29,578 nucleotides of DNA from Promethearchaeati archaeon (GTDB taxonomy: Archaea; Asgardarchaeota; Heimdallarchaeia; JABLTI01). The translations under genes were made by a program, and so were the position numbers. Positions 13,976-26,118 of this stretch are shown here, one piece after another (position 1 is the stretch's first letter; every line of letters begins with the position of its first letter). The notes beneath the pieces were generated by a model that saw only the letters and a list, made by a program, of their open reading frames with translations, had not been told where the DNA came from and made no database searches. Location of the stretch: contig JABLTI010000029.1 in NCBI GenBank assembly GCA_013166835.1, forward strand, positions 1 to 29,578, read 5' to 3'.

Positions 13976-15022
13976 TTAGAATCTCCTAGGAGCTCTAGGA
14001 TAGGATTTATACTTCGTTCGAGGTTCTGTGCTAATCCAATCACCAGATTCATCTAGATGTGAGAGTGATCTCAAGATATCAAAGGTTACCCACCTAGTTG
14101 CTTGGGGATTTGGAATATAGTCCCACAACCCATATGTTCCTTGTACCTCTTGTAAGTATTTCACCATATTTGCTACTCTTGGATCTTCTGTTGTCGCACC
14201 TATTCTCCAACATAGATTTAGAATTAATGCTAAATCATAGCGTCCATGGAAGGTTAGGAAGCCATGTGCTGGCTCTATACCAATTATCCTTGCTACTTCG
14301 AATCCTAGATAGTTTCTATCTTTAGTTTCTCTAGAGAGTAATAAATCAAGCACTCTTTTTGGTACATCTGTGTTTCTTCTTTTTGGATGATAGGCAAATG
14401 CATTCAGAGCACTGGTACTATTTGTTCTACAACCAAATCGCGAATTTGGAAGTTGACGGTAACCAACAGGTTGATAACCTATTTTCCCATCTGGAGAGAA
14501 AATTGTAGGCCAAGAACCATCCTCTGCTCGATGTTCTATCAGCCACTCATAAGCCTTCTCTGCTCGAGAGTCTTCGGCAAAACCACTTATAGCTAAGGCA
14601 AATAATGGATCAGCTGTTTGTTTTGGTGTTATTGCTGGACCATGGGTGGGATGTATAAAATGTAAAACTCTGCCTGGTTGTCTTGGCCAGGCTCCATCAT
14701 CGAATTGATGAGTGAAGAGGTATTCTGCGGCTTTTTGTATTGCTGGATGATCGTTTTGTAACCCCAAATAACCTAATCTAATCATTGCAAGGGAAGTATT
14801 CCTAATTGGACTATCTAGTAATAATCCTAATGATTCACTTGTTGACCATGAACCATCTTTTTGTTGAATAGCTAGTAGAGCAGTTATCAAAGGATCTTTT
14901 TGTTGTTGTCTAATCAATTCCTTGATTTCTTTATCATCAACGTCTTTATGCAAAAGCTCTTTCAAAACCAATAATCGAAGAGAAGGAGAAGCATCACCTA
15001 GTAATAATGGTAACCAAGTCAT
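13976..15022 (-). CDS. Prenyltransferase/squalene-cyclase-repeat (alpha/alpha toroid) protein of unknown function
   Basis: QW-like repeats QQKDGSW, QFDDGAW, RAEDGSW and QGTYGLW, preceded by helices such as KAAEYLF and KAYEWLI. Start overlaps the uvrA-like stop (ATGA), with SD GGAGG. Confidence 0.75.
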   Translation of the reverse strand: MTWLPLLLGDASPSLRLLVLKELLHKDVDDKEIKELIRQQQKDPLITALLAIQQKDGSWSTSESLGLLLDSPIRNTSLAMIRLGYLGLQNDHPAIQKAAEYLFTHQFDDGAWPRQPGRVLHFIHPTHGPAITPKQTADPLFALAISGFAEDSRAEKAYEWLIEHRAEDGSWPTIFSPDGKIGYQPVGYRQLPNSRFGCRTNSTSALNAFAYHPKRRNTDVPKRVLDLLLSRETKDRNYLGFEVARIIGIEPAHGFLTFHGRYDLALILNLCWRIGATTEDPRVANMVKYLQEVQGTYGLWDYIPNPQATRWVTFDILRSLSHLDESGDWISTEPRTKYKSYPRAPRRF

Positions 15023-18000
15023 AAGTTACCCTCCAAGACTTTTTTGATGTATACTGCTGATGGAGTTTTTCCAAGAGATACTTTCTCCGGAGTCTCTGAG
15101 GCAACAATTAACCCACCTTCTGGTCCTCCAACTGGACCAAGCTCAATTAACCAATCGCACGCAGCTAAAACATTCGGATGATGTTCAACTACTATTACTG
15201 TGTTTCCAGCATCGACAAGTCGCTGAAGTATTCCTATTAAGCGTTCAACATCTTCTAAGTGTTGTCCAACTGTAGGCTCATCGAGGATATATAATGTATG
15301 ATCTTTCGTTTTCTTACATAGCTCTTTCGCTATCTTCATTCTCTGAGCTTCTCCACCAGACAAGGTGTATCTTGGTTGTTGCAATACAAGATAACCTAGA
15401 CCAACGTCAATTGCTGCTTTCAAGTGCCGAGCTATAGTTTCATTCTCATCCTTGAAGAGTCTATAAACTTGGTTGATAGTTAATTTCAGAAGATCTGGCA
15501 AAGAAAATTCTTTTACTTTGACTTCCCACGCCTCTGGTATAAAACCGGTTCCTTTACAGATATCACAACTTGAGTAAACAGTAGGTAGGAAACCCATTTC
15601 CATTCTTATTCGACCGGTACCCTTGCAAGCGGAGCAACCTCGTTTGTAATGTTTATCCGTAATTCCAAGAATATCAGCCTCTGCTGTTTCTGTATAGATT
15701 TTGATTAGAGGATTTAGTAATCCAAAGAATCTTAGGGGACTGTAGATGTTTCTCTTCGATTGATCAACTAGTAAAGCATTCTTTGGTGAACCTTCTATTG
15801 ATTCATGTTCTCCAGGTTTCATTCGTTCACTATGTATAGAAGTAGTCAATTTCTTTGGAGCAACAACATTTCCAAGAGTATCTATAATTAATGTGCTTTT
15901 TCCACTTCCTGATACGCCACAAACTCCAACTAAAACTCCAAGAGGAATTTTAACATCTATGTTTTGTAGATTATGTTCCTTAGCACCTTTTATTGTCATC
16001 CATTTAGTGGCTTTTCTTCTTGGTTCGGAAATTAGTTTTAGTTGTTCATCTTGATTTGTGTGGTATGGATTTGTTTTCTTTTTCCCTGATAACCAATTAG
16101 ATGTTGTAGTATTCATTTTCATAATTTCTTCAATTGAACCTTGTGCAATAATCTCTCCACCAGCAACTCCTGAACCAGGACCAAGGTCAATTATATGATC
16201 TGCTCCGGTTATTATCTCTGGATCATGTTCCACAACAACAACCGAATTGCCATCATTTCGAAGTTCTAGTAGGACATCTAGAAGATCATTTACTTCTGAG
16301 GGATGCAATCCTCGAGTAGGTTCATCAAGGAGAATAGTAAGGGAGGTTAAACCACTTCCAAGAATAGAAGCTAATCGTAATCGTTCGTATTCACCAGCAG
16401 ATAAATTATATGTCGGACGATCGGGATTAATATACCCAAGACCAACTTTTATCAGATAATTCAATCTCTTGGTTAACTTCTCAAGATTTTGCTGCAGTAA
16501 TTCTACCCCTATAAAATCTGAGGGTTCAATTTTCTTAATTACCTTTGCTAGATTTTTAATGGTCATTTGTCGCAATTGATGAATGTTGAAACCTTTTAAT
16601 TTGAAAGCTAAATATTCTTCTTTTAATTTCTGCCCATTACAAACATCACAAGTGAATTTGTCGCTATAAGTTTCAAATAAGTCACCATAACTAAACCAGC
16701 TAAATCCACCCCACGCCTGAAAAACTCCCCAAACTCGCTGGTCTCGAACATATTTGATTATTTTTCCTTTGCTTCTTCCCTCTACTTCGAACTCCCACTT
16801 CTCATCTGAGCCATAAAGGAAGATCTGTTTCGCTTCCTCCGGAATTTCATTCCAAGGAGTTTTTTGAGGATCGAAATTATATCTCATTGCAATTTCTTTT
16901 AACAAGTAATAAGCTGAATTTAGTGGTTTGCAGTAGTAACCATAAGGCCAAAAACCAGGCGAGTACATTGCACCATCACAAATCGGTTTCTCAGGATGAA
17001 TGATTAATTTATCAATATTAGGTGTCCCAATAAATCCTAAGCCTTTACATTTTTCACAACTGGAAATCAAGCTTACTGGCGAGAAATGAGTTGGTCTCAC
17101 AAAACTAGCTGTGGATTTGCATTTCGGACAAATCCAATGTTCTTCTCCTCTTCTCATCATGGTTCTACATTCTAGACATTCTCGCTCTCCTATGTGAGTC
17201 ATAAATGTATAAAGATGATCAGCTATCTCACTTACATTTCCAACCGTATACCTCGGATCAATACGCCAAGCACTCCTAAAAGATCTAAGAATAGCTGTAA
17301 CTCCTAATCCTGTGATAGAATCTACTGGTGCTTCTGGACCTTCATTCATACTTTGACGTTCATAAATCGATAAACTCTCGAGAAATCTTCGTCTGGCTTC
17401 TAATTCTAAAACATCATTAACTAAACTCGATTTACCTGAACCCGATATACCCGTAACAACTGCAAGTTTGCCTTTCGGGATATCCACACTGATATTTTTT
17501 AGATTGTTTGCTCTTGCTCCTTTAACAGAAATTACATCAGAGTGTTGGAATTTCTTCTCACTCGTAAGAGTTCTAGGAGTGTATTCTTCTTCTTCCAGAA
17601 GTGCTTTACTTGTTAGAGATTTTTTACACTTTAGTAGATCATTTACAGTCCCACTAAAGATTAATTCACCACCAAATGGTCCTGCTCCCGGGCCAAGATC
17701 GATAATCCAATCCGCAGCTCGAATTATATCCGTATTATGTTCGACAATAACTATTGTTGCTCCTGCTCTTACAAGTCTATCAAATACAACTAACAAGCCA
17801 GAAATATCACTTGGATGTAAACCAGTACTTGGTTCATCTAAAACAATAAGATTTTCAGTAAGATTTCTTCTTCCAAGATATTTCGCTAATTTTACTCTTT
17901 GAGCTTCTCCCCCACTCAGAGTTGGTGATGCTTGTCCTAGATGTAAATAACCCAGTCCAATATCTATTAGTGCTTTCAAAATTGATTCCGCACTTTTTCG

Positions 18001-19959
18001 ATTCTTTTCCGAGAGATATTCACTCTCGAGTATATAGGGAGTAGCCTCTCTAATACTAAGATTATAAAAATCCCCTATAGATAATACATCACCATTGAAT
18101 TCTACATTTGCATCTAGTATTTCTTGTTTAAACCTTAAACCACGACATTTCTCACATGGAAGCCAAATTGGAGCAATGTAGGGCATTTTTACTTCCATGG
18201 CTCCTAAACCTTCACACTCTTCACACTGACCATCTTTCCTATTAAATGTAAAATGAGATTTCGTAAAATTAGTTGCCGCAGCAAAAATATCTCGAATAAT
18301 ATCTGAGAGCTTTGTATAGGTAGCTGGATTTGATCTTGGATTCCTACCAATTGGACTCTGATCGACTAATACTGGTTTCTTCTTTCTACCAATAACCTCT
18401 TCACAACCTTGAGGTTCCTTTTTCAATAAACTTGCAACTAAGACATCTTTAACTAGAGTGCTTTTTCCAGAACCAGAAACTCCAGTTACTGCAGAAATTC
18501 TTTGAAGTGGTAATTGAATATCTATCCCCTTCAAATTTCTGAAGATTGCATTTTTTATAGTAAGAAACTTATCGGGTTGTGGTCGTAATTCAGGTATGAC
18601 TACTTTATCCCGGAAACTAAAATAACGACCAGTTGGACTATCTTCAGACCACAGATTCTTAGCTGTTCCATGGAAAACGATCTCTCCTCCTTCTCTCCCT
18701 GCTCCTGGTCCGATATCAATCGCTTGATCTGCTACTGCTGCAGCCATTCGGTCATGTTCAACATACACTACTGGACCTGCTAATTCCCGGAAAGCTGGTA
18801 GAAATTTCATGACATCATTTGGGTGTTGACCAATTGTTGGTTCATCAAGTATGTGAAGCATGTCTTCAAGTCTACTAGTAAGAATTATTGCAAGTCTTAC
18901 TCTTTGAGCTTCTCCTCTCGAGAGAGTAGGAGATGACCTATTTAATGAAATATAACCCAAACCAACTCTGTGGAGTGCATTTATTCTTCTTGTAATTTCA
19001 TCCTTTAATCTATCAGCTGTTTTTGGCAGAAAAACAGTCTCAAATAATTTCTTAATTTCACTCACAGATAGTTTCAGAAGATCAGGTAGCATTAAGCCAT
19101 TCCATCTCACTGCGACAGCTTCAGGATGAAGCCCTGTAGAATGACATAACTCACAACCTTTTCCCTTACACGCTTCACAAGGCATATGGAAATACTTGGG
19201 TTCAAGTTCTGTGAACCAGTAATTACAATTAGTGCAAATTCTTGTTTTCGCTAATTTTGTTTCTTCATCTTTTGCGCGAACAATTATGTAGGAGGATCCT
19301 AATTCAAAAACTTGCTGTATAATCTCTCTTATCTGCTTTGTATTCGCTTTCTTTGTGAGTACAGCCAATTTTATTTCGATATTATGCTCTTTATTTGGAT
19401 CTAAAGACTTACCATCCCAATTTTTCTTGTCAATTATTATCGATTCATTATCGAATTTTTCCTCTAACATACTTAGGAGAGTTTTATGACTTCCTAATGA
19501 TTGCTGATTAACAGGTGCTAGAATCTCAATTGTATCCGTACTCACTTTATTTCTAACAATGTCTATTATTGCATCCTCTGAATGAACAGCTAAACCAGAA
19601 CTGCACTCTGGACAGAAACGAATGCCAAAATTTGCAAATAAAATTCTAAAGAAAGGATGTAAACCTGAAGAAGTTGCTAACGTTGAGAGTGGATTACGAT
19701 TTAAGACATTTTGATCTACAGCAACAGCAGGACTAATTCCTGTAATGGTATTTACATTTGCTTTTGGGAGTCTTAATCGAGTAGAGCGAGGAGTAAAAAT
19801 ATCAAGAAATCTTCTGCGAGCTTCATGATATAAGGTGTCATACACAAGTGAACTTTTTCCAGAACCGGAAATTCCAGTAACAACCGTTAAACCATCTTGT
19901 ATTTCTACATCCACGTTTTTCAGATTGTTTTCTTTCGCACCCTCGATTTTGATTTTCAT
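15019..19959 (-). CDS. uvrA: Tandem-duplicated UvrA-family ABC ATPase (two UvrA units, four NBDs)
   Basis: Four Walker A (G[IV]SGSGKS[ST]), four signatures (LSRGE, LSGGE, LSAGE, LSGGE), four LDEP motifs, GA.E/ANNLKN starts, VDQSPIGRNPRSNPATY and CxxC zinc modules. Likely start is ATG 19959 (MKIKIEGAKE) rather than GTG 20013. Confidence 0.92.
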   Translation of the reverse strand: MKIKIEGAKENNLKNVDVEIQDGLTVVTGISGSGKSSLVYDTLYHEARRRFLDIFTPRSTRLRLPKANVNTITGISPAVAVDQNVLNRNPLSTLATSSGLHPFFRILFANFGIRFCPECSSGLAVHSEDAIIDIVRNKVSTDTIEILAPVNQQSLGSHKTLLSMLEEKFDNESIIIDKKNWDGKSLDPNKEHNIEIKLAVLTKKANTKQIREIIQQVFELGSSYIIVRAKDEETKLAKTRICTNCNYWFTELEPKYFHMPCEACKGKGCELCHSTGLHPEAVAVRWNGLMLPDLLKLSVSEIKKLFETVFLPKTADRLKDEITRRINALHRVGLGYISLNRSSPTLSRGEAQRVRLAIILTSRLEDMLHILDEPTIGQHPNDVMKFLPAFRELAGPVVYVEHDRMAAAVADQAIDIGPGAGREGGEIVFHGTAKNLWSEDSPTGRYFSFRDKVVIPELRPQPDKFLTIKNAIFRNLKGIDIQLPLQRISAVTGVSGSGKSTLVKDVLVASLLKKEPQGCEEVIGRKKKPVLVDQSPIGRNPRSNPATYTKLSDIIRDIFAAATNFTKSHFTFNRKDGQCEECEGLGAMEVKMPYIAPIWLPCEKCRGLRFKQEILDANVEFNGDVLSIGDFYNLSIREATPYILESEYLSEKNRKSAESILKALIDIGLGYLHLGQASPTLSGGEAQRVKLAKYLGRRNLTENLIVLDEPSTGLHPSDISGLLVVFDRLVRAGATIVIVEHNTDIIRAADWIIDLGPGAGPFGGELIFSGTVNDLLKCKKSLTSKALLEEEEYTPRTLTSEKKFQHSDVISVKGARANNLKNISVDIPKGKLAVVTGISGSGKSSLVNDVLELEARRRFLESLSIYERQSMNEGPEAPVDSITGLGVTAILRSFRSAWRIDPRYTVGNVSEIADHLYTFMTHIGERECLECRTMMRRGEEHWICPKCKSTASFVRPTHFSPVSLISSCEKCKGLGFIGTPNIDKLIIHPEKPICDGAMYSPGFWPYGYYCKPLNSAYYLLKEIAMRYNFDPQKTPWNEIPEEAKQIFLYGSDEKWEFEVEGRSKGKIIKYVRDQRVWGVFQAWGGFSWFSYGDLFETYSDKFTCDVCNGQKLKEEYLAFKLKGFNIHQLRQMTIKNLAKVIKKIEPSDFIGVELLQQNLEKLTKRLNYLIKVGLGYINPDRPTYNLSAGEYERLRLASILGSGLTSLTILLDEPTRGLHPSEVNDLLDVLLELRNDGNSVVVVEHDPEIITGADHIIDLGPGSGVAGGEIIAQGSIEEIMKMNTTTSNWLSGKKKTNPYHTNQDEQLKLISEPRRKATKWMTIKGAKEHNLQNIDVKIPLGVLVGVCGVSGSGKSTLIIDTLGNVVAPKKLTTSIHSERMKPGEHESIEGSPKNALLVDQSKRNIYSPLRFFGLLNPLIKIYTETAEADILGITDKHYKRGCSACKGTGRIRMEMGFLPTVYSSCDICKGTGFIPEAWEVKVKEFSLPDLLKLTINQVYRLFKDENETIARHLKAAIDVGLGYLVLQQPRYTLSGGEAQRMKIAKELCKKTKDHTLYILDEPTVGQHLEDVERLIGILQRLVDAGNTVIVVEHHPNVLAACDWLIELGPVGGPEGGLIVASETPEKVSLGKTPSAVYIKKVLEGNL

Positions 19960-20174
19960 CGAAATCTCTCGACTTTTCGCATCTCTGAAGTGTTTACCCT
20001 TTTTCCTTCTCACTATTAATTTATTTTGTAAGCAATGGTTACTTTTATCGTTTTAGTAATCTTGATGATAGGAGATTACCGAAAGTAAAGGAAATTTGTA
20101 GGAAGAATCTGTTTATCACTTAGAATTTTTTTTAATTGAATAACTTTTAAAAGAACCACGTTTGCTATTATTTT

Positions 20175-23179: not shown

Positions 23180-25090
23180 ATGAAATCTGTTGAGCTTATT
23201 TGCGAGAAATACGCAATTCAAAATGCATTAGAGCATGGAGAAGCACAAGTTGGTTCTATTATGAAAATTATTATGAAAGATAATCCTGAATTACGAAAAG
23301 AAGCCAACAAAGTGAAAGATATACTCGAGAAAAAAGTAGAGTATGTTAATGCCTTGAAAATAGAAGAAATACAACAAATAGCTCAACAAAAGTATCCTGA
23401 ACTCTTCAAGGAAGAAGAAGTTGCAGACACAGAGGAAGACGTTGATTTCATTAGAAAGATCATCAATGAGGATATGAAAACAGGGAAATTCGGTGGCCGA
23501 GTTCACACTCGATTTCCTCCAGAACCAAATGGCTATTTGCACATAGGTCACTCAATGTCAATTAATCTAAATTATGGCATAGCTAAGGAATACAATGGGA
23601 AATTTAACCTACGATTCGATGACACAAATCCGGTTAAAGAAGAAGAGGAGTATGTCCAAGCAATTGTTGAAGATGCAAAATGGCTTGGAGCCAATTTCAG
23701 AGATGAAGTATTGTTTGCATCTGATTATTTTGATCAATTCTATGAATATGCTGTTCAATTAGTTAAGAAGGGATTAGCATTTGTTGATGATCTAAGTGTA
23801 GAAGAGATTCGAGAACAAAGAGGATCTTTAACAGAACTTGGAAAGGAAAGCCCATACAGAACTAGAACAATAGAAGAGAATCTAGATCTTTTTACACGCA
23901 TGAAAGATGGAGAGTTTCCAGAAGGCTCGAGAGTTCTTCGAGCTAAAATTGATATGGAGCATCCAAATCTCATGATGAGAGATCCAATAATTTATAGAAT
24001 TCTCCATAAATCACATCACAACACAGGCGATAAGTGGTGCATTTATCCAACATACGATTGGGCTCACGGTCTTGAGGATTCTATCGAAGGAATTACTCAT
24101 TCTATTTGTACTTTAGAATTTGAGGTTCATAGGCAATTATATGATTGGTATTTAGACCAACTAGATGATGAAAAAGGTAAACCAATTTATCATCCCCAGC
24201 AAATTGAATTCGCTCGCTTGAATCTATCTTACCTTGTTCTTAGTAAGAGAAGGCAATTACGACTTGTAAAAGAAGGCTATGTTAAAGGCTGGAATGATCC
24301 TCGATTACTTACAATTTCTGGAATGAGACGAGGTGGAATAACCTCTGATGCTATTCGAAAATTCTGCAAACATATCGGTGTTACAAAACGAAAGAGAATT
24401 GTGGATAGGTCTGTATTCGATAAATTTGTCAGAGATGATTTAGACGAGAGATGCCCTCGAGTAATGGGTGTGCTTAGACCACTGAAAGTCATTATTACTA
24501 ATTATCCAGAGAGTAAGGAAGAAGAGATAGTTATTCAGAACCATCCCAGAGATAAGAAGATGGGAACTCGGAAAGTGAAGTTCACTAAAACACTTTACAT
24601 AGAACAAGATGATTTCATAGAAGACCCTCCCAGCGATTATAAGAGACTCGCACCTAATAAAGAAGTTAGATTACGATACGCTAGTGTCATCAAGTGTGAT
24701 AAAGTGATTAAAGATAAGAAAACAGGGCAAGTTAAAGAAATCCATTGCAGTAACCAACCAGAAAGTGAAGCAACGAAATCAATCGGAACCATTCATTGGC
24801 TTTCAGCTGATCATGTTGTACAAGCAGAAATACGATTATATGACAGACTTTGTATTAAGGAAAATCCAATGGATGTTGAAGAAGGAAAAGATTTCACAGA
24901 TTACATCAATCCTAATTCTCTCGAGGTTGTAACAGGTTTTGTTGAACCATTTATCCAGAAAGCAGAAATAGGTTCACGATACCAATTTGAGCGATTAGGT
25001 TACTTCAATATTGATCCCATTGATTCTAAGATAGATAGTTTAGTGCTAAATAGGATCATAACCCTTCGGGATTCATGGTCGAAGAAATAA
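23180..25090 (+). CDS. glnS: Glutaminyl-tRNA synthetase with an extra ~78-aa N-terminal helical domain
   Basis: FIRKIINED, HTRFPPEPNGYLHIGH, LRFDDTNPVKE, HHNTGDKWCIYPTYD, ITHSICTLEF (Gln-type, whereas GluRS has THVLRG), EFARLNL..LSKR, GWNDPRL, anticodon beta-barrels EVRLRY, IHW, RLYDRL and YQFERLGYF. Confidence 0.93.
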   Translation: MKSVELICEKYAIQNALEHGEAQVGSIMKIIMKDNPELRKEANKVKDILEKKVEYVNALKIEEIQQIAQQKYPELFKEEEVADTEEDVDFIRKIINEDMKTGKFGGRVHTRFPPEPNGYLHIGHSMSINLNYGIAKEYNGKFNLRFDDTNPVKEEEEYVQAIVEDAKWLGANFRDEVLFASDYFDQFYEYAVQLVKKGLAFVDDLSVEEIREQRGSLTELGKESPYRTRTIEENLDLFTRMKDGEFPEGSRVLRAKIDMEHPNLMMRDPIIYRILHKSHHNTGDKWCIYPTYDWAHGLEDSIEGITHSICTLEFEVHRQLYDWYLDQLDDEKGKPIYHPQQIEFARLNLSYLVLSKRRQLRLVKEGYVKGWNDPRLLTISGMRRGGITSDAIRKFCKHIGVTKRKRIVDRSVFDKFVRDDLDERCPRVMGVLRPLKVIITNYPESKEEEIVIQNHPRDKKMGTRKVKFTKTLYIEQDDFIEDPPSDYKRLAPNKEVRLRYASVIKCDKVIKDKKTGQVKEIHCSNQPESEATKSIGTIHWLSADHVVQAEIRLYDRLCIKENPMDVEEGKDFTDYINPNSLEVVTGFVEPFIQKAEIGSRYQFERLGYFNIDPIDSKIDSLVLNRIITLRDSWSKK

Positions 25091-26118
25091 GTACTCCAGT
25101 AGATATTTTCAGTGAAGTGGTTAATTTGGTTAAGAAAAATACTAAGCAATCTAAAGTTGAGGATTTATTCAATCAATCACTAAAACATTATGAACTTGAG
25201 GAATTTGATGAAGCCGAAGAATGCTTAGAGCAGGCACTTGAATTAGAGCCAACAAATATGAATACACTGCTAGGCATTGCAAACTTCCATTATGATTTAT
25301 ACGAATATGATAAATCACTTGAATATTTACTAAAAGCAAACAAGCTTGAACCAACTAACGAGGTTGTAATTAGAAGCATAGCTAACATCTATGTTTTACT
25401 CAAAGATTTGGAAAAGGGCATAGAGTATTGCAAGAAAGCACTATCACTAAATCCAGAAGATTTCAGAGCGTTTCTGATAATGGGGAGTGCTTTTTTCCAA
25501 CAACACAATATTGAGAAAGCTGAGAGCCTATTTAGAAAAGCAGCTGAGATTGAACCTGAATCTTCAGATGTATGGTTTAATCTTGGAGTATTGCACAGAA
25601 CTCTACAAGAATTTGACAAAGCATTAGAGAGTTTTCAAAAAGCACTTTCTTTGGAACCAGAAGATTTAATGTTGTACTTTACAATTGCCGAAACATACGA
25701 AGACCTAGAAAACATAGATGAAGCGATTAAATTTTATTATAAGGTGTTAGAAAACGATCCTAAAGCTTACGCTGTATGGATTCGGCTTTTCGAATTACAC
25801 GTTGATAGAGAAGAACACAAGAAAGCTGAAAAATGCATGTTGGAATTAATGAAACTGGATCCCAACAATCCTGTTATACTAAATAATCTCGGTTACCTCT
25901 ATCTTGAGATGGGAGAGCTGGAGAAAGCATTTACATTTCTAACTAAATCTATGGAAGCTAATTCTAGTTATCCTAATATTTGGCACAGTTTCGGAGAGTA
26001 TTATGAAAAAATAGGCGATAAAGAAAAAGCTCTCGACCACTATACAAAAGCAGTTGAATTAGATCCAGAGAACAAAGAACACCAAGAAGCATTCAAAAAG
26101 ATAAAGAAGAAGAAGTAA
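25075..26118 (+). CDS. Tetratricopeptide repeat protein
   Basis: 347 aa with about 8-9 34-aa repeats (e.g. VWFNLGVLH...FDKALESFQKALSLEP; ILNNLGYLY...EKA). Overlaps the glnS 3' end by 16 nt. Confidence 0.93.
   Translation: MVEEISTPVDIFSEVVNLVKKNTKQSKVEDLFNQSLKHYELEEFDEAEECLEQALELEPTNMNTLLGIANFHYDLYEYDKSLEYLLKANKLEPTNEVVIRSIANIYVLLKDLEKGIEYCKKALSLNPEDFRAFLIMGSAFFQQHNIEKAESLFRKAAEIEPESSDVWFNLGVLHRTLQEFDKALESFQKALSLEPEDLMLYFTIAETYEDLENIDEAIKFYYKVLENDPKAYAVWIRLFELHVDREEHKKAEKCMLELMKLDPNNPVILNNLGYLYLEMGELEKAFTFLTKSMEANSSYPNIWHSFGEYYEKIGDKEKALDHYTKAVELDPENKEHQEAFKKIKKKK

Follow-up and report, generated by a model that had tools for sequence, protein, structure and literature searches.

The stretch of DNA analysed here comprises 29,578 nucleotides of contig JABLTI010000029.1, from the assembly GCA_013166835.1 of a Promethearchaeati archaeon; we call this whole stretch the window. 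It harbours a gene for a glutaminyl-tRNA synthetase (GlnRS) whose product starts with a domain of the type found at the N-terminus of archaeal glutamyl-tRNA synthetases (GluRS), hereafter called the N-domain (Table 1). An initial annotation made from the sequence alone had described a bacterial-type GlnRS core joined by an acidic linker to an archaeal GluRS-type N-terminus in an archaeal genome. It had also postulated that the N-domain was grafted from the GluRS of the host, that the enzyme takes the place of the indirect route to Gln-tRNA, and that it bears on the origin of eukaryotic GlnRS.

Table 1. Coordinates of the GlnRS gene and of the domains and motifs of its product in the window
Feature	Position	Strand	Basis
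GlnRS gene with N-terminal extension	23180..25090	+	single ORF (open reading frame), 636 aa plus stop
N-domain, aa 1-77, four-helix, archaeal-GluRS-type, YqeY-like	23180..23410	+	NF003169, TIGR00463 and 3AII matches, AlphaFold2 (AF2) model
Acidic linker, aa 78-89, EEEVADTEEDVD	23411..23446	+	sequence, charge, low predicted local distance difference test score (pLDDT)
Class I catalytic (Rossmann) domain, aa 108-422	23501..24445	+	PF00749, E 1.4e-99
HIGH motif, aa 121-124	23540..23551	+	clade alignment
Val316, column of E. coli Asp235	24125..24127	+	alignment to E. coli D235
LSKR, KMSKS-type motif, aa 354-357	24239..24250	+	K356 and R357 invariant in 27/27 rows
Two beta-barrel anticodon-binding domains, aa 425-524 and 537-612	24452..25015	+	PF03950, E 2e-30; PF20974, E 7.2e-23

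The GlnRS gene, its relatives and its host

The whole protein scored 659.2 bits against the NCBIfam glnS model TIGR00440, whose cut-off is 425.8, which places it in that family. Archaeal GluRS models (TIGR00463 and NF003169) aligned from residue 3-8 onwards and stayed below their cut-offs, with scores of 389 versus 401.75 and 362.7 versus 516. A Pfam scan of the whole protein assigned tRNA-synt_1c to residues 108-422, tRNA-synt_1c_C to 425-524 and tRNA-synt_1c_C2 to 537-612, and no family to residues 1-107. The protein also matched PRK14703 (NF011291), the GlnRS/YqeY fusion model, with 812 bits over profile positions 10-558 of 769. Because this match ends at position 558 and the protein ends at residue 636, a C-terminal YqeY domain of the Deinococcus type is absent. 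The closest solved structures are those of bacterial GlnRS (5BNZ, 642 bits; E. coli, 613 bits), and the motif strings on which the initial annotation relied (THSICTLEF, YPTYD, HTRFPPEPNGYLHIGH and EEEVADTEEDV) are all present. The last of these is part of the acidic linker, with a net charge of -7 over residues 73-88, and the pLDDT of the AF2 model of the N-domain falls below 50 from residue 79. Both the bacterial type of the core and the acidic linker were thus borne out.

Among 400 genomes of the phylum, 41 encode a protein above the glnS cut-off. Twenty-nine of these carriers belong to the family of the window (f1) and to a second family (f3), with frames of 622-687 residues, and the other 12 belong to a third one (f6), with frames of 578-602 residues. 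Using a profile search, we found the N-domain in frame directly upstream of the core in all 29 f1/f3 genomes (105-143 bits), including G013, where the gene is cut by the contig end; the same profile found none upstream of GlnRS in the 12 f6 genomes. Of the best 120 database clusters, 52 have a full N-domain, as judged from a shared N-terminal sequence and a HIGH motif that lies 108 residues or more into the protein; five more start within it. The start Met and the N-domain line up in 18 related loci, and 12 other GlnRS rows are 41-66% identical to the window protein over the N-domain. Near-identical DNA of the gene was found in sediment metagenome runs from several studies. Heimdallarchaeial GlnRS entries annotated by NCBI often start inside or after the N-domain (P0011, P0025, P0031, P0039 and P0058-P0062), and they bear the name 'glutamine--tRNA ligase/YqeY domain fusion protein' despite having no YqeY part at the C-terminus. 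The short forms P0031, P0060 and P0061 adjoin full-length loci in our tree (see below) and therefore represent late start calls. Public annotation thus partly hides the N-domain.

The active site was compared over the 27 aligned rows of the N-domain clade. The equivalents of E. coli R30, Y211, H215, C229 and Q255, which we take to be glutamine-pocket residues, are identical in the window protein and invariant in all 27 rows, as are H121, G123, H124, K356 and R357. The second position of the HIGH motif is I in 23 rows and V in 4. At the column of E. coli Leu136, presumably an unpairing-loop residue, the clade has L (13), I (11) or V (3), and the window protein has Leu. The column of E. coli Asp235, which we take to be an acceptor-stem contact, is V in 23 and I in 4 of the 27 rows; it is T in 11, S in 1 and D in 1 of 13 rows from f6 and a Thorarchaeota protein, and N or D in 60 of 66 bacterial and in 9 of 9 Thermoplasmata rows. 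Judging from these residues, the window protein is probably a working GlnRS with a complete site for Gln and ATP.

The host genome is confirmed as archaeal, of the class Heimdallarchaeia, as the initial annotation had supposed. The nearest proteins have source names of Heimdallarchaeota, Heimdallarchaeaceae or Asgard group, and the two nearest named loci come from 'Candidatus Heimdallarchaeota archaeon' metagenome-assembled genomes (MAGs). The assembly (3.56 Mb, 260 contigs, 85% complete, 6.8% estimated contamination) also encodes an archaeal GluRS, gatD-gatE loci and tRNA-Gln with A1-U72 and A73.

Origins of the core and of the N-domain

The core shares 57-64% identity with GlnRS of many bacterial phyla, Chloroflexota, Ignavibacteriota/Bacteroidota and Planctomycetota among them. 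We built a GlnRS tree from an alignment of 118 rows over 555 columns under LG+G4, by a quick search with midpoint rooting and with eukaryotes and an outgroup left out; branch support came from the Shimodaira-Hasegawa-like approximate likelihood ratio test (SH-aLRT). Three archaeal clades, each with an SH-aLRT value of 100, were recovered: the N-domain proteins (28 rows), f6 with one Thorarchaeota protein (13 rows) and proteins of Thermoplasmata-type MAGs (9 rows). All three are nested among bacterial rows, on a backbone with weak support (79-83). The quick tree suggested two independent acquisitions in Asgard archaea, which we do not adopt as a conclusion, as a tree holding the 41 Asgard rows as one clade was 23.7 log-likelihood units higher (approximately unbiased test of the constraint, p-AU 0.698). 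A single acquisition in Asgard archaea may be the better reading, with long-branch attraction between the two stems as a caveat.

The relation to eukaryotic GlnRS was judged by bit scores to solved structures. Against human, yeast and E. coli GlnRS, the window protein scored 438, 365 and 613 bits, respectively, and an f6 protein 466, 415 and 714 bits; the corresponding scores were 482, 440 and 762 bits for a GlnRS from Dehalococcoidia and 490, 415 and 701 bits for one from Bacteroidota. Since the archaeal proteins are nested among bacterial GlnRS and are no closer to the eukaryotic enzymes than bacterial ones are, the core was likely acquired from a bacterial-type lineage. By these comparisons the Heimdallarchaeial GlnRS are a diverged bacterial-type lineage and not intermediates toward eukaryotic GlnRS, and the proposal that the gene sheds light on the eukaryotic enzyme as an ancestor or intermediate was not upheld.

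A separate search with the N-terminus confirmed its proposed affiliation. Residues 1-90 matched NF003169 (E 7.3e-16, profile positions 4-87) and TIGR00463 (E 5.6e-10), and archaeal GluRS were the only NCBIfam matches. The only PDB sequence match was the GluRS of M. thermautotrophicus (3AII, residues 4-71, E 4.1e-9), and the N-terminus of the GluRS encoded in the same genome is 30% identical (E 4e-10). The resemblance of these sequences to archaeal GluRS N-termini is far beyond chance. Searching 1.84 billion proteins with an N-domain profile yielded 719 representatives at E <= 0.001, and 37 of the 38 longer matches that we scanned with NCBIfam are archaeal GluRS. The 38th (P0205, 293 aa) combines a GluRS-type N-domain (aa 30-100) with the C-terminal half of a pyridoxal phosphate-dependent aminotransferase, and could represent either another fusion or a chimeric call. 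In the f6 genome G067, an ORF of about 336 residues (L121, 2052-3062, + strand) opens with a segment resembling the GluRS-type N-domain (32-44 bits), followed by a Pol-beta-type nucleotidyltransferase part (PF18765, E 1.6e-4; PF01909, E 3.2e-4); similar ORFs occur in 19 f6 genomes.

To look for the donor, we used a profile built from GlnRS N-domains only. It scored 80.5, 78.4 and 76.5 bits against three f6 GluRS, 72.2 bits against an f3 GluRS, 71.2 bits against the best of the 150 representatives listed from the 1.84 billion searched, and 55.9 bits against the best GluRS of family f1. In a tree of 83 N-domain columns, the GlnRS N-domains group with f6-type GluRS, then with those of f3 and f4, with weak support (88/82 and 81/79). 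The domain most likely stems from a Heimdallarchaeial GluRS, as judged from these scores, though not demonstrably from that of the present host. The idea of a graft from host GluRS is thus about right. The AF2 model of the N-domain (pLDDT 87.2) has four helices, at residues 4-19, 24-34, 36-58 and 61-71.

tRNA-Gln genes and the indirect route

ARAGORN analysis of the fetched GlnRS flanks identified an adjoining tRNA-Gln gene in 11 of 12 f6 loci and in 8 of 13 f3 genomes; no tRNA-Gln gene lies by GlnRS in five f1 loci, and no tRNA gene was found in the window. Except for three unassigned tRNA-like calls, no other tRNA type occurs in these flanks. The three calls lie between GlnRS and tRNA-Gln in f3 loci (L107, 1168-1242; L113, 1132-1206; L117, 1165-1239), with an ARAGORN anticodon of 'ta', and align to our tRNA-Gln model (63-65 bits) with a 6-nt loop, TTTAGG. 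The GlnRS loci of Thermoplasmata are flanked upstream and downstream by tRNA-Gln(CUG) and tRNA-Gln(UUG) genes (L040, L055, L069, L071, L074, L079 and L080).

We built a covariance model from 17 tRNA-Gln genes, scanned the 83 genomes of the class, fetched the high-scoring places and aligned 115 matches, of which 111 genes were left after removal of one duplicate place and three tRNA-like genes with odd loops. BLAST searches of 10 genomes with a 76-nt tRNA-Gln had given partial matches in 0/5 and 2/5 cases, and the model was used instead. All 111 genes have A1-U72. The families devoid of GlnRS (f4, f5 and f7) have 14 genes, 12 of them with G37 and A73, one with A37/A73 and one with G37/G73.

The 43 genes of f6 fall into two discrete classes, each with both anticodons. 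The A37/G73 class (25 genes) lies mostly beside GlnRS and, with one exception, has no anticodon-loop intron, and the G37/A73 class (18 genes) is dispersed and mostly intron-bearing. Examples of such dual sets are L098 (3183-3372) versus L198 and L200 in genome G067, and L093, L202 and L203 in G075. They look like two parallel Gln-tRNA systems in one cell.

Among N-domain carriers, f3 has 33 genes: all 14 UUG genes are A37/A73, and the CUG genes are A37/A73 (8), G37/A73 (4) or G37/G73 (7). In f1 (21 genes), all 10 CUG genes are A37/A73, and the UUG genes are G37/A73 (9), A37/A73 (1) or A37/T73 (1), with no G73. Over both families, A73 is present in 46 of 54 genes, G73 in 7 and T73 in 1. Three tRNA-Gln genes are present in the genome of the window, with the archaeal A1-U72 pair and an encoded CCA end: a CUG gene (A37/A73) and two UUG genes of identical sequence (G37/A73). 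The genome has no further ones, since its two tRNA-Glu genes head the next matches to the model, at 55 bits or less. In Thermoplasmata, 13 of 15 tRNA-Gln genes beside GlnRS have G73, and L063 has A73. Unextended archaeal GlnRS thus go with G73 tRNAs, in two lineages, and N-domain GlnRS go mostly with A73, in one lineage. For GlnRS of E. coli, G73 and A37 serve as identity elements. According to PMC9499178, archaeal tRNA-Gln has A73 and bacterial tRNA-Gln has G73.

As the initial annotation had recommended, we looked for gatD, gatE and GluRS genes elsewhere in the genome of the window, and found an archaeal GluRS above the cut-off, two gatE and two gatD loci. Across the class, gatD is above the cut-off in 75 and gatE in 74 of the 83 genomes, nearly all GlnRS carriers included; both genes are missing from just one of the 29 N-domain carriers, G017, which is 86% complete. 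GlnRS is thus an addition to the route through GluRS and GatDE and not a replacement of it, contrary to what had been proposed. In the genus of the window, 9 of 11 genomes have two gatD matches, and gatE comes in two types, one at about 640 bits and the other at about 430. The two gatD-gatE loci of the genome of the window (G000) lie on contigs C137 and C149 (L003-L008). The C137 gatE gene is split into frames of 404 and 237 residues; of the ten other genomes in the genus, nine have this type intact (649-660 aa), and G088 has an internal TAG. The second type is divergent (about 430 bits), and f3 has low-scoring gatE genes only (356-410 bits).

Proposed function, alternatives and known systems

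The interpretation that we favour, with moderate confidence, is that the window encodes a working GlnRS composed of a bacterial-type core and a Heimdallarchaeial GluRS-like N-domain, which aids the use of native tRNA-Gln in cis, and that this enzyme operates beside GluRS and GatDE. The core (aa ~90-636) would read the anticodon and the acceptor end as in bacteria. The N-domain, on its flexible acidic tether, would provide an extra grip in cis and raise the affinity for native A73 tRNA-Gln. The YqeY domain of Deinococcus GlnRS, a cis affinity enhancer for tRNA-Gln (PMC1865053), and the N-terminal domain (NTD) of yeast GlnRS, which helps tRNA binding (PMC3333875), act in this way on their tRNAs. 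Val316, with which the Asp235-type contact is gone, and the N-domain may together relax the bacterial demands on the acceptor end, letting the foreign enzyme use host tRNAs with A1-U72 and A73. In the genus of the window, GlnRS may chiefly serve tRNA-Gln(CUG) with A37, and tRNA-Gln(UUG) retains the native G37.

In a broader scenario, which we put forward tentatively and with considerable reserve, archaea would have crossed the long-postulated tRNA-Gln orthogonality barrier in two ways. On the tRNA side, f6 and Thermoplasmata would have changed the substrate, by keeping, beside a GlnRS that has no extension, a dedicated tRNA-Gln set with G73 and, in f6, also A37; the intron-bearing native G37/A73 set of f6 would presumably be served by GluRS and GatDE, giving a natural parallel pair. 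On the enzyme side, f1 and f3 would have made GlnRS accept native A73 tRNAs, by fusing it to the GluRS N-domain and by exchanging the Asp235-type contact. The genus of the window might then split its isoacceptors, CUG going to GlnRS and UUG to GluRS-GatDE.

Several observations weigh against the favoured reading. The retained GatDE renders GlnRS formally redundant, and the listed runs that carry DNA of the gene include no RNA run. The link between N-domain and discriminator base compares one N-domain lineage with two lineages devoid of it, and 7 of the 19 f3 CUG genes have G73; moreover, the MAGs are incomplete and the tRNA sampling was not neutral, the covariance model having been built from tRNAs adjacent to GlnRS. 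With a mean net charge of +0.15, the N-domain is not basic, and at three positions the share of basic residues drops from 74-82% in GluRS N-domains to 15-54% in GlnRS N-domains. These features speak for a role that has diverged and may be independent of RNA binding.

The proposed kinship of the N-domain with YqeY is part of the same balance. A Foldseek search of PDB with the N-domain model gave no match at E <= 0.001. The structure comparison suggested in the initial annotation, performed with VIA, did list the tail subdomain of the NTD of human GlnRS (residues 119-182, Z 5.2) and the YqeY protein 8xjg (Z 5.0), the latter with 20% identity and a root-mean-square deviation of 1.8 A across 46 residues; both are within noise, as unrelated small helical proteins reach Z 6.3. 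Pfam GatB_Yqey was unmatched on the whole protein (E up to 1) and was not among the 25 of 31 families listed for 14 N-domains (E up to 10); these 14 domains had no consistent Pfam family, and a single member matched GatF (E 0.006). With hhalign, N-domain columns 5-43 aligned to the C-termini of 29 Heimdallarchaeial GatE over 39 columns (P 1.7e-4, probability 49%). Our own structure and profile tests are therefore consistent with a YqeY/GatB-tail kinship, and they are not decisive. The initial annotation had set the GluRS N-domain against YqeY as alternatives, yet Nureki et al. (2010; PMC2978374) call the N-terminal segment of archaeal GluRS the "YQEY domain" and name the kinship between YqeY and the GatB tail. 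Because the GluRS segment already bears this name, GlnRS plus N-domain represents a third arrangement of a GlnRS with a YqeY-like domain.

It is conceivable, if rather unlikely, that the protein is a real GlnRS in which the N-domain is a protein-docking module taken over from GluRS, where it would tether the synthetase to GatDE or another translation partner, and through which GlnRS would join the channelling complex of the host. The near-neutral charge and the loss of GluRS-type basic positions fit this idea, and so do the disorder of the domain in the crystal of free GluRS (reported in PMC2978374), the retention of GatDE in nearly all GlnRS-bearing genomes (gatD in 75/83 class genomes) and the two gatD copies in 9/11 genomes of the genus. 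However, the domain has no known partner, its studied YqeY and GatB-tail relatives bind tRNA (PMC1865053, PMC3333875), and the co-variation with the discriminator base is what a role in tRNA recognition predicts.

We consider it less probable still that the enzyme is a specialised or moonlighting paralogue, which would charge a single isoacceptor under some conditions or act on a regulatory or non-canonical substrate, while GluRS and GatDE feed translation. The indirect route is complete in the genome of the window, A37 is found mainly on the CUG isoacceptor in its genus (10/10 CUG genes), and GlnRS adjoins cox genes in other Heimdallarchaeial groups, according to a preprint (10.1101/2024.07.04.601786). 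Against this, the catalytic and Gln-site residues and both anticodon-binding barrels are fully conserved, synteny with tRNA-Gln genes is tight in the sister families, and a split between isoacceptors would remain canonical glutaminylation.

A vertical relic or precursor of eukaryotic GlnRS, with the N-domain as forerunner of the eukaryotic N-terminal domain, appears very improbable. Heimdallarchaeia are the closest known relatives of eukaryotes (10.1101/2024.07.04.601786), eukaryotic GlnRS likewise has an N-terminal GatB/YqeY-like domain (PMC3333875), and human GlnRS residues 119-182 are retrieved by the structure search, at a Z score within noise. Yet the window protein and its f6 counterpart score lower against human GlnRS than both bacterial proteins (438 and 466 versus 482 and 490 bits) and no higher against the yeast enzyme (365 and 415 versus 440 and 415 bits). 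In addition, the bacterial unpairing-loop Leu is kept, the sequences are nested among bacterial ones in a tree that leaves out eukaryotes, GlnRS is present in just 41 of 400 genomes of the phylum, and the N-domain has 77 residues of GluRS-type sequence, versus about 185 in eukaryotes. An assembly or gene-calling artefact, for which the estimated contamination of the MAG (6.8%) and the relatives annotated by NCBI as beginning inside or after the N-domain might speak, is refuted by the in-frame arrangement in 29/29 genomes of two families (the single-contig G015 and G016 included), by the start Met and domain aligned in 18 loci, by near-identical DNA in runs of several studies and by the position of the short database forms next to full-length loci in the tree, which marks them as late start calls.

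According to reviews up to 2022 (PMC9499178, PMC8762117, PMC2978374), GlnRS is absent from all archaea, which they explain by the incompatibility of archaeal tRNA-Gln with a foreign GlnRS. The preprint cited above mentions GlnRS in Heimdallarchaeia in passing. Neither the N-domain fusion nor the tRNA co-variation was described in the literature that we searched, which did not extend to the supplements of that preprint; the co-variation of tRNA-Gln with the GlnRS N-domain is new here. The gene family contradicts the textbook statement that archaea are devoid of GlnRS and indicates that the tRNA barrier has been crossed, and it points to the route across, namely domain grafting on the enzyme side or a change of the discriminator on the tRNA side. 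It would represent the third independent recruitment of a YqeY-like helper by a GlnRS, after those in eukaryotes and Deinococcus, and leaves unchanged the view that eukaryotic GlnRS has a separate origin. These archaea may hold naturally orthogonal GlnRS/tRNA pairs, and the old question of orthogonality can now be tested with a few recombinant proteins and tRNA transcripts.

Other genes of the window deserve mention. A gene for a 347-residue tetratricopeptide repeat protein (25075-26118, +) starts 16 nt before the stop codon of the GlnRS gene, and the two are probably co-transcribed. A class-III aminotransferase is encoded in two ORFs of 141 and 218 residues (433-858 and 899-1555, +), which match profile positions 10-130 and 195-402; a frameshift, pseudogene formation or faulty assembly might account for the split. 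At 15019-20013 (-), an unusually long UvrA-like protein of 1664 residues comprises several ABC/UvrA-type ATPase segments, a UvrA DNA-binding domain and a UvrA interaction domain. A promoter and terminator scan of the window gave 11 promoter-like sites, versus 13.8 expected.

Of the known systems, bacterial GlnRS (E. coli GlnS, 1GTR/1O0B; P. aeruginosa, 5BNZ) are the closest to the window protein, with the core aligned end to end over residues ~88-635 (613-642 bits) and the HIGH and MSK motifs, the Gln-site residues, the unpairing-loop Leu and both beta-barrels in common. The window protein differs by its 77-residue N-domain and acidic linker, by Val in place of Asp235 and by its archaeal host, whose tRNA-Gln has A1-U72 and A73. 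The other archaeal GlnRS, known from MAGs only (f6 with the Thorarchaeota protein, and Thermoplasmata), are also of the bacterial type and often encoded beside tRNA-Gln genes, but they have no N-domain, and the neighbouring tRNA-Gln are mostly G73. The GlnRS of D. radiodurans (2HZ7; PMC1865053) likewise combines a bacterial-type core with an appended domain of the YqeY/GatB-tail kind; its extension is C-terminal and has 215 residues, whereas that of the window protein is N-terminal, 77 residues long and of the GluRS type. With the non-discriminating archaeal GluRS (M. thermautotrophicus, 3AII; PMC2978374) the window protein shares the overall domain order, but its core is that of a GlnRS and scores below the cut-offs of the GluRS models. 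In eukaryotic GlnRS (yeast Gln4, 3TL4; human, 4YE6), too, the N-terminus bears a helical appendix, one that is kin to the GatB tail and aids tRNA-Gln binding (PMC3333875). Their N-terminal domain consists of two subdomains, of about 185 residues, and has no sequence match to the N-domain of the window protein, whose core is more distant from the human and yeast enzymes (438 and 365 bits) than from bacterial GlnRS (613-642 bits).

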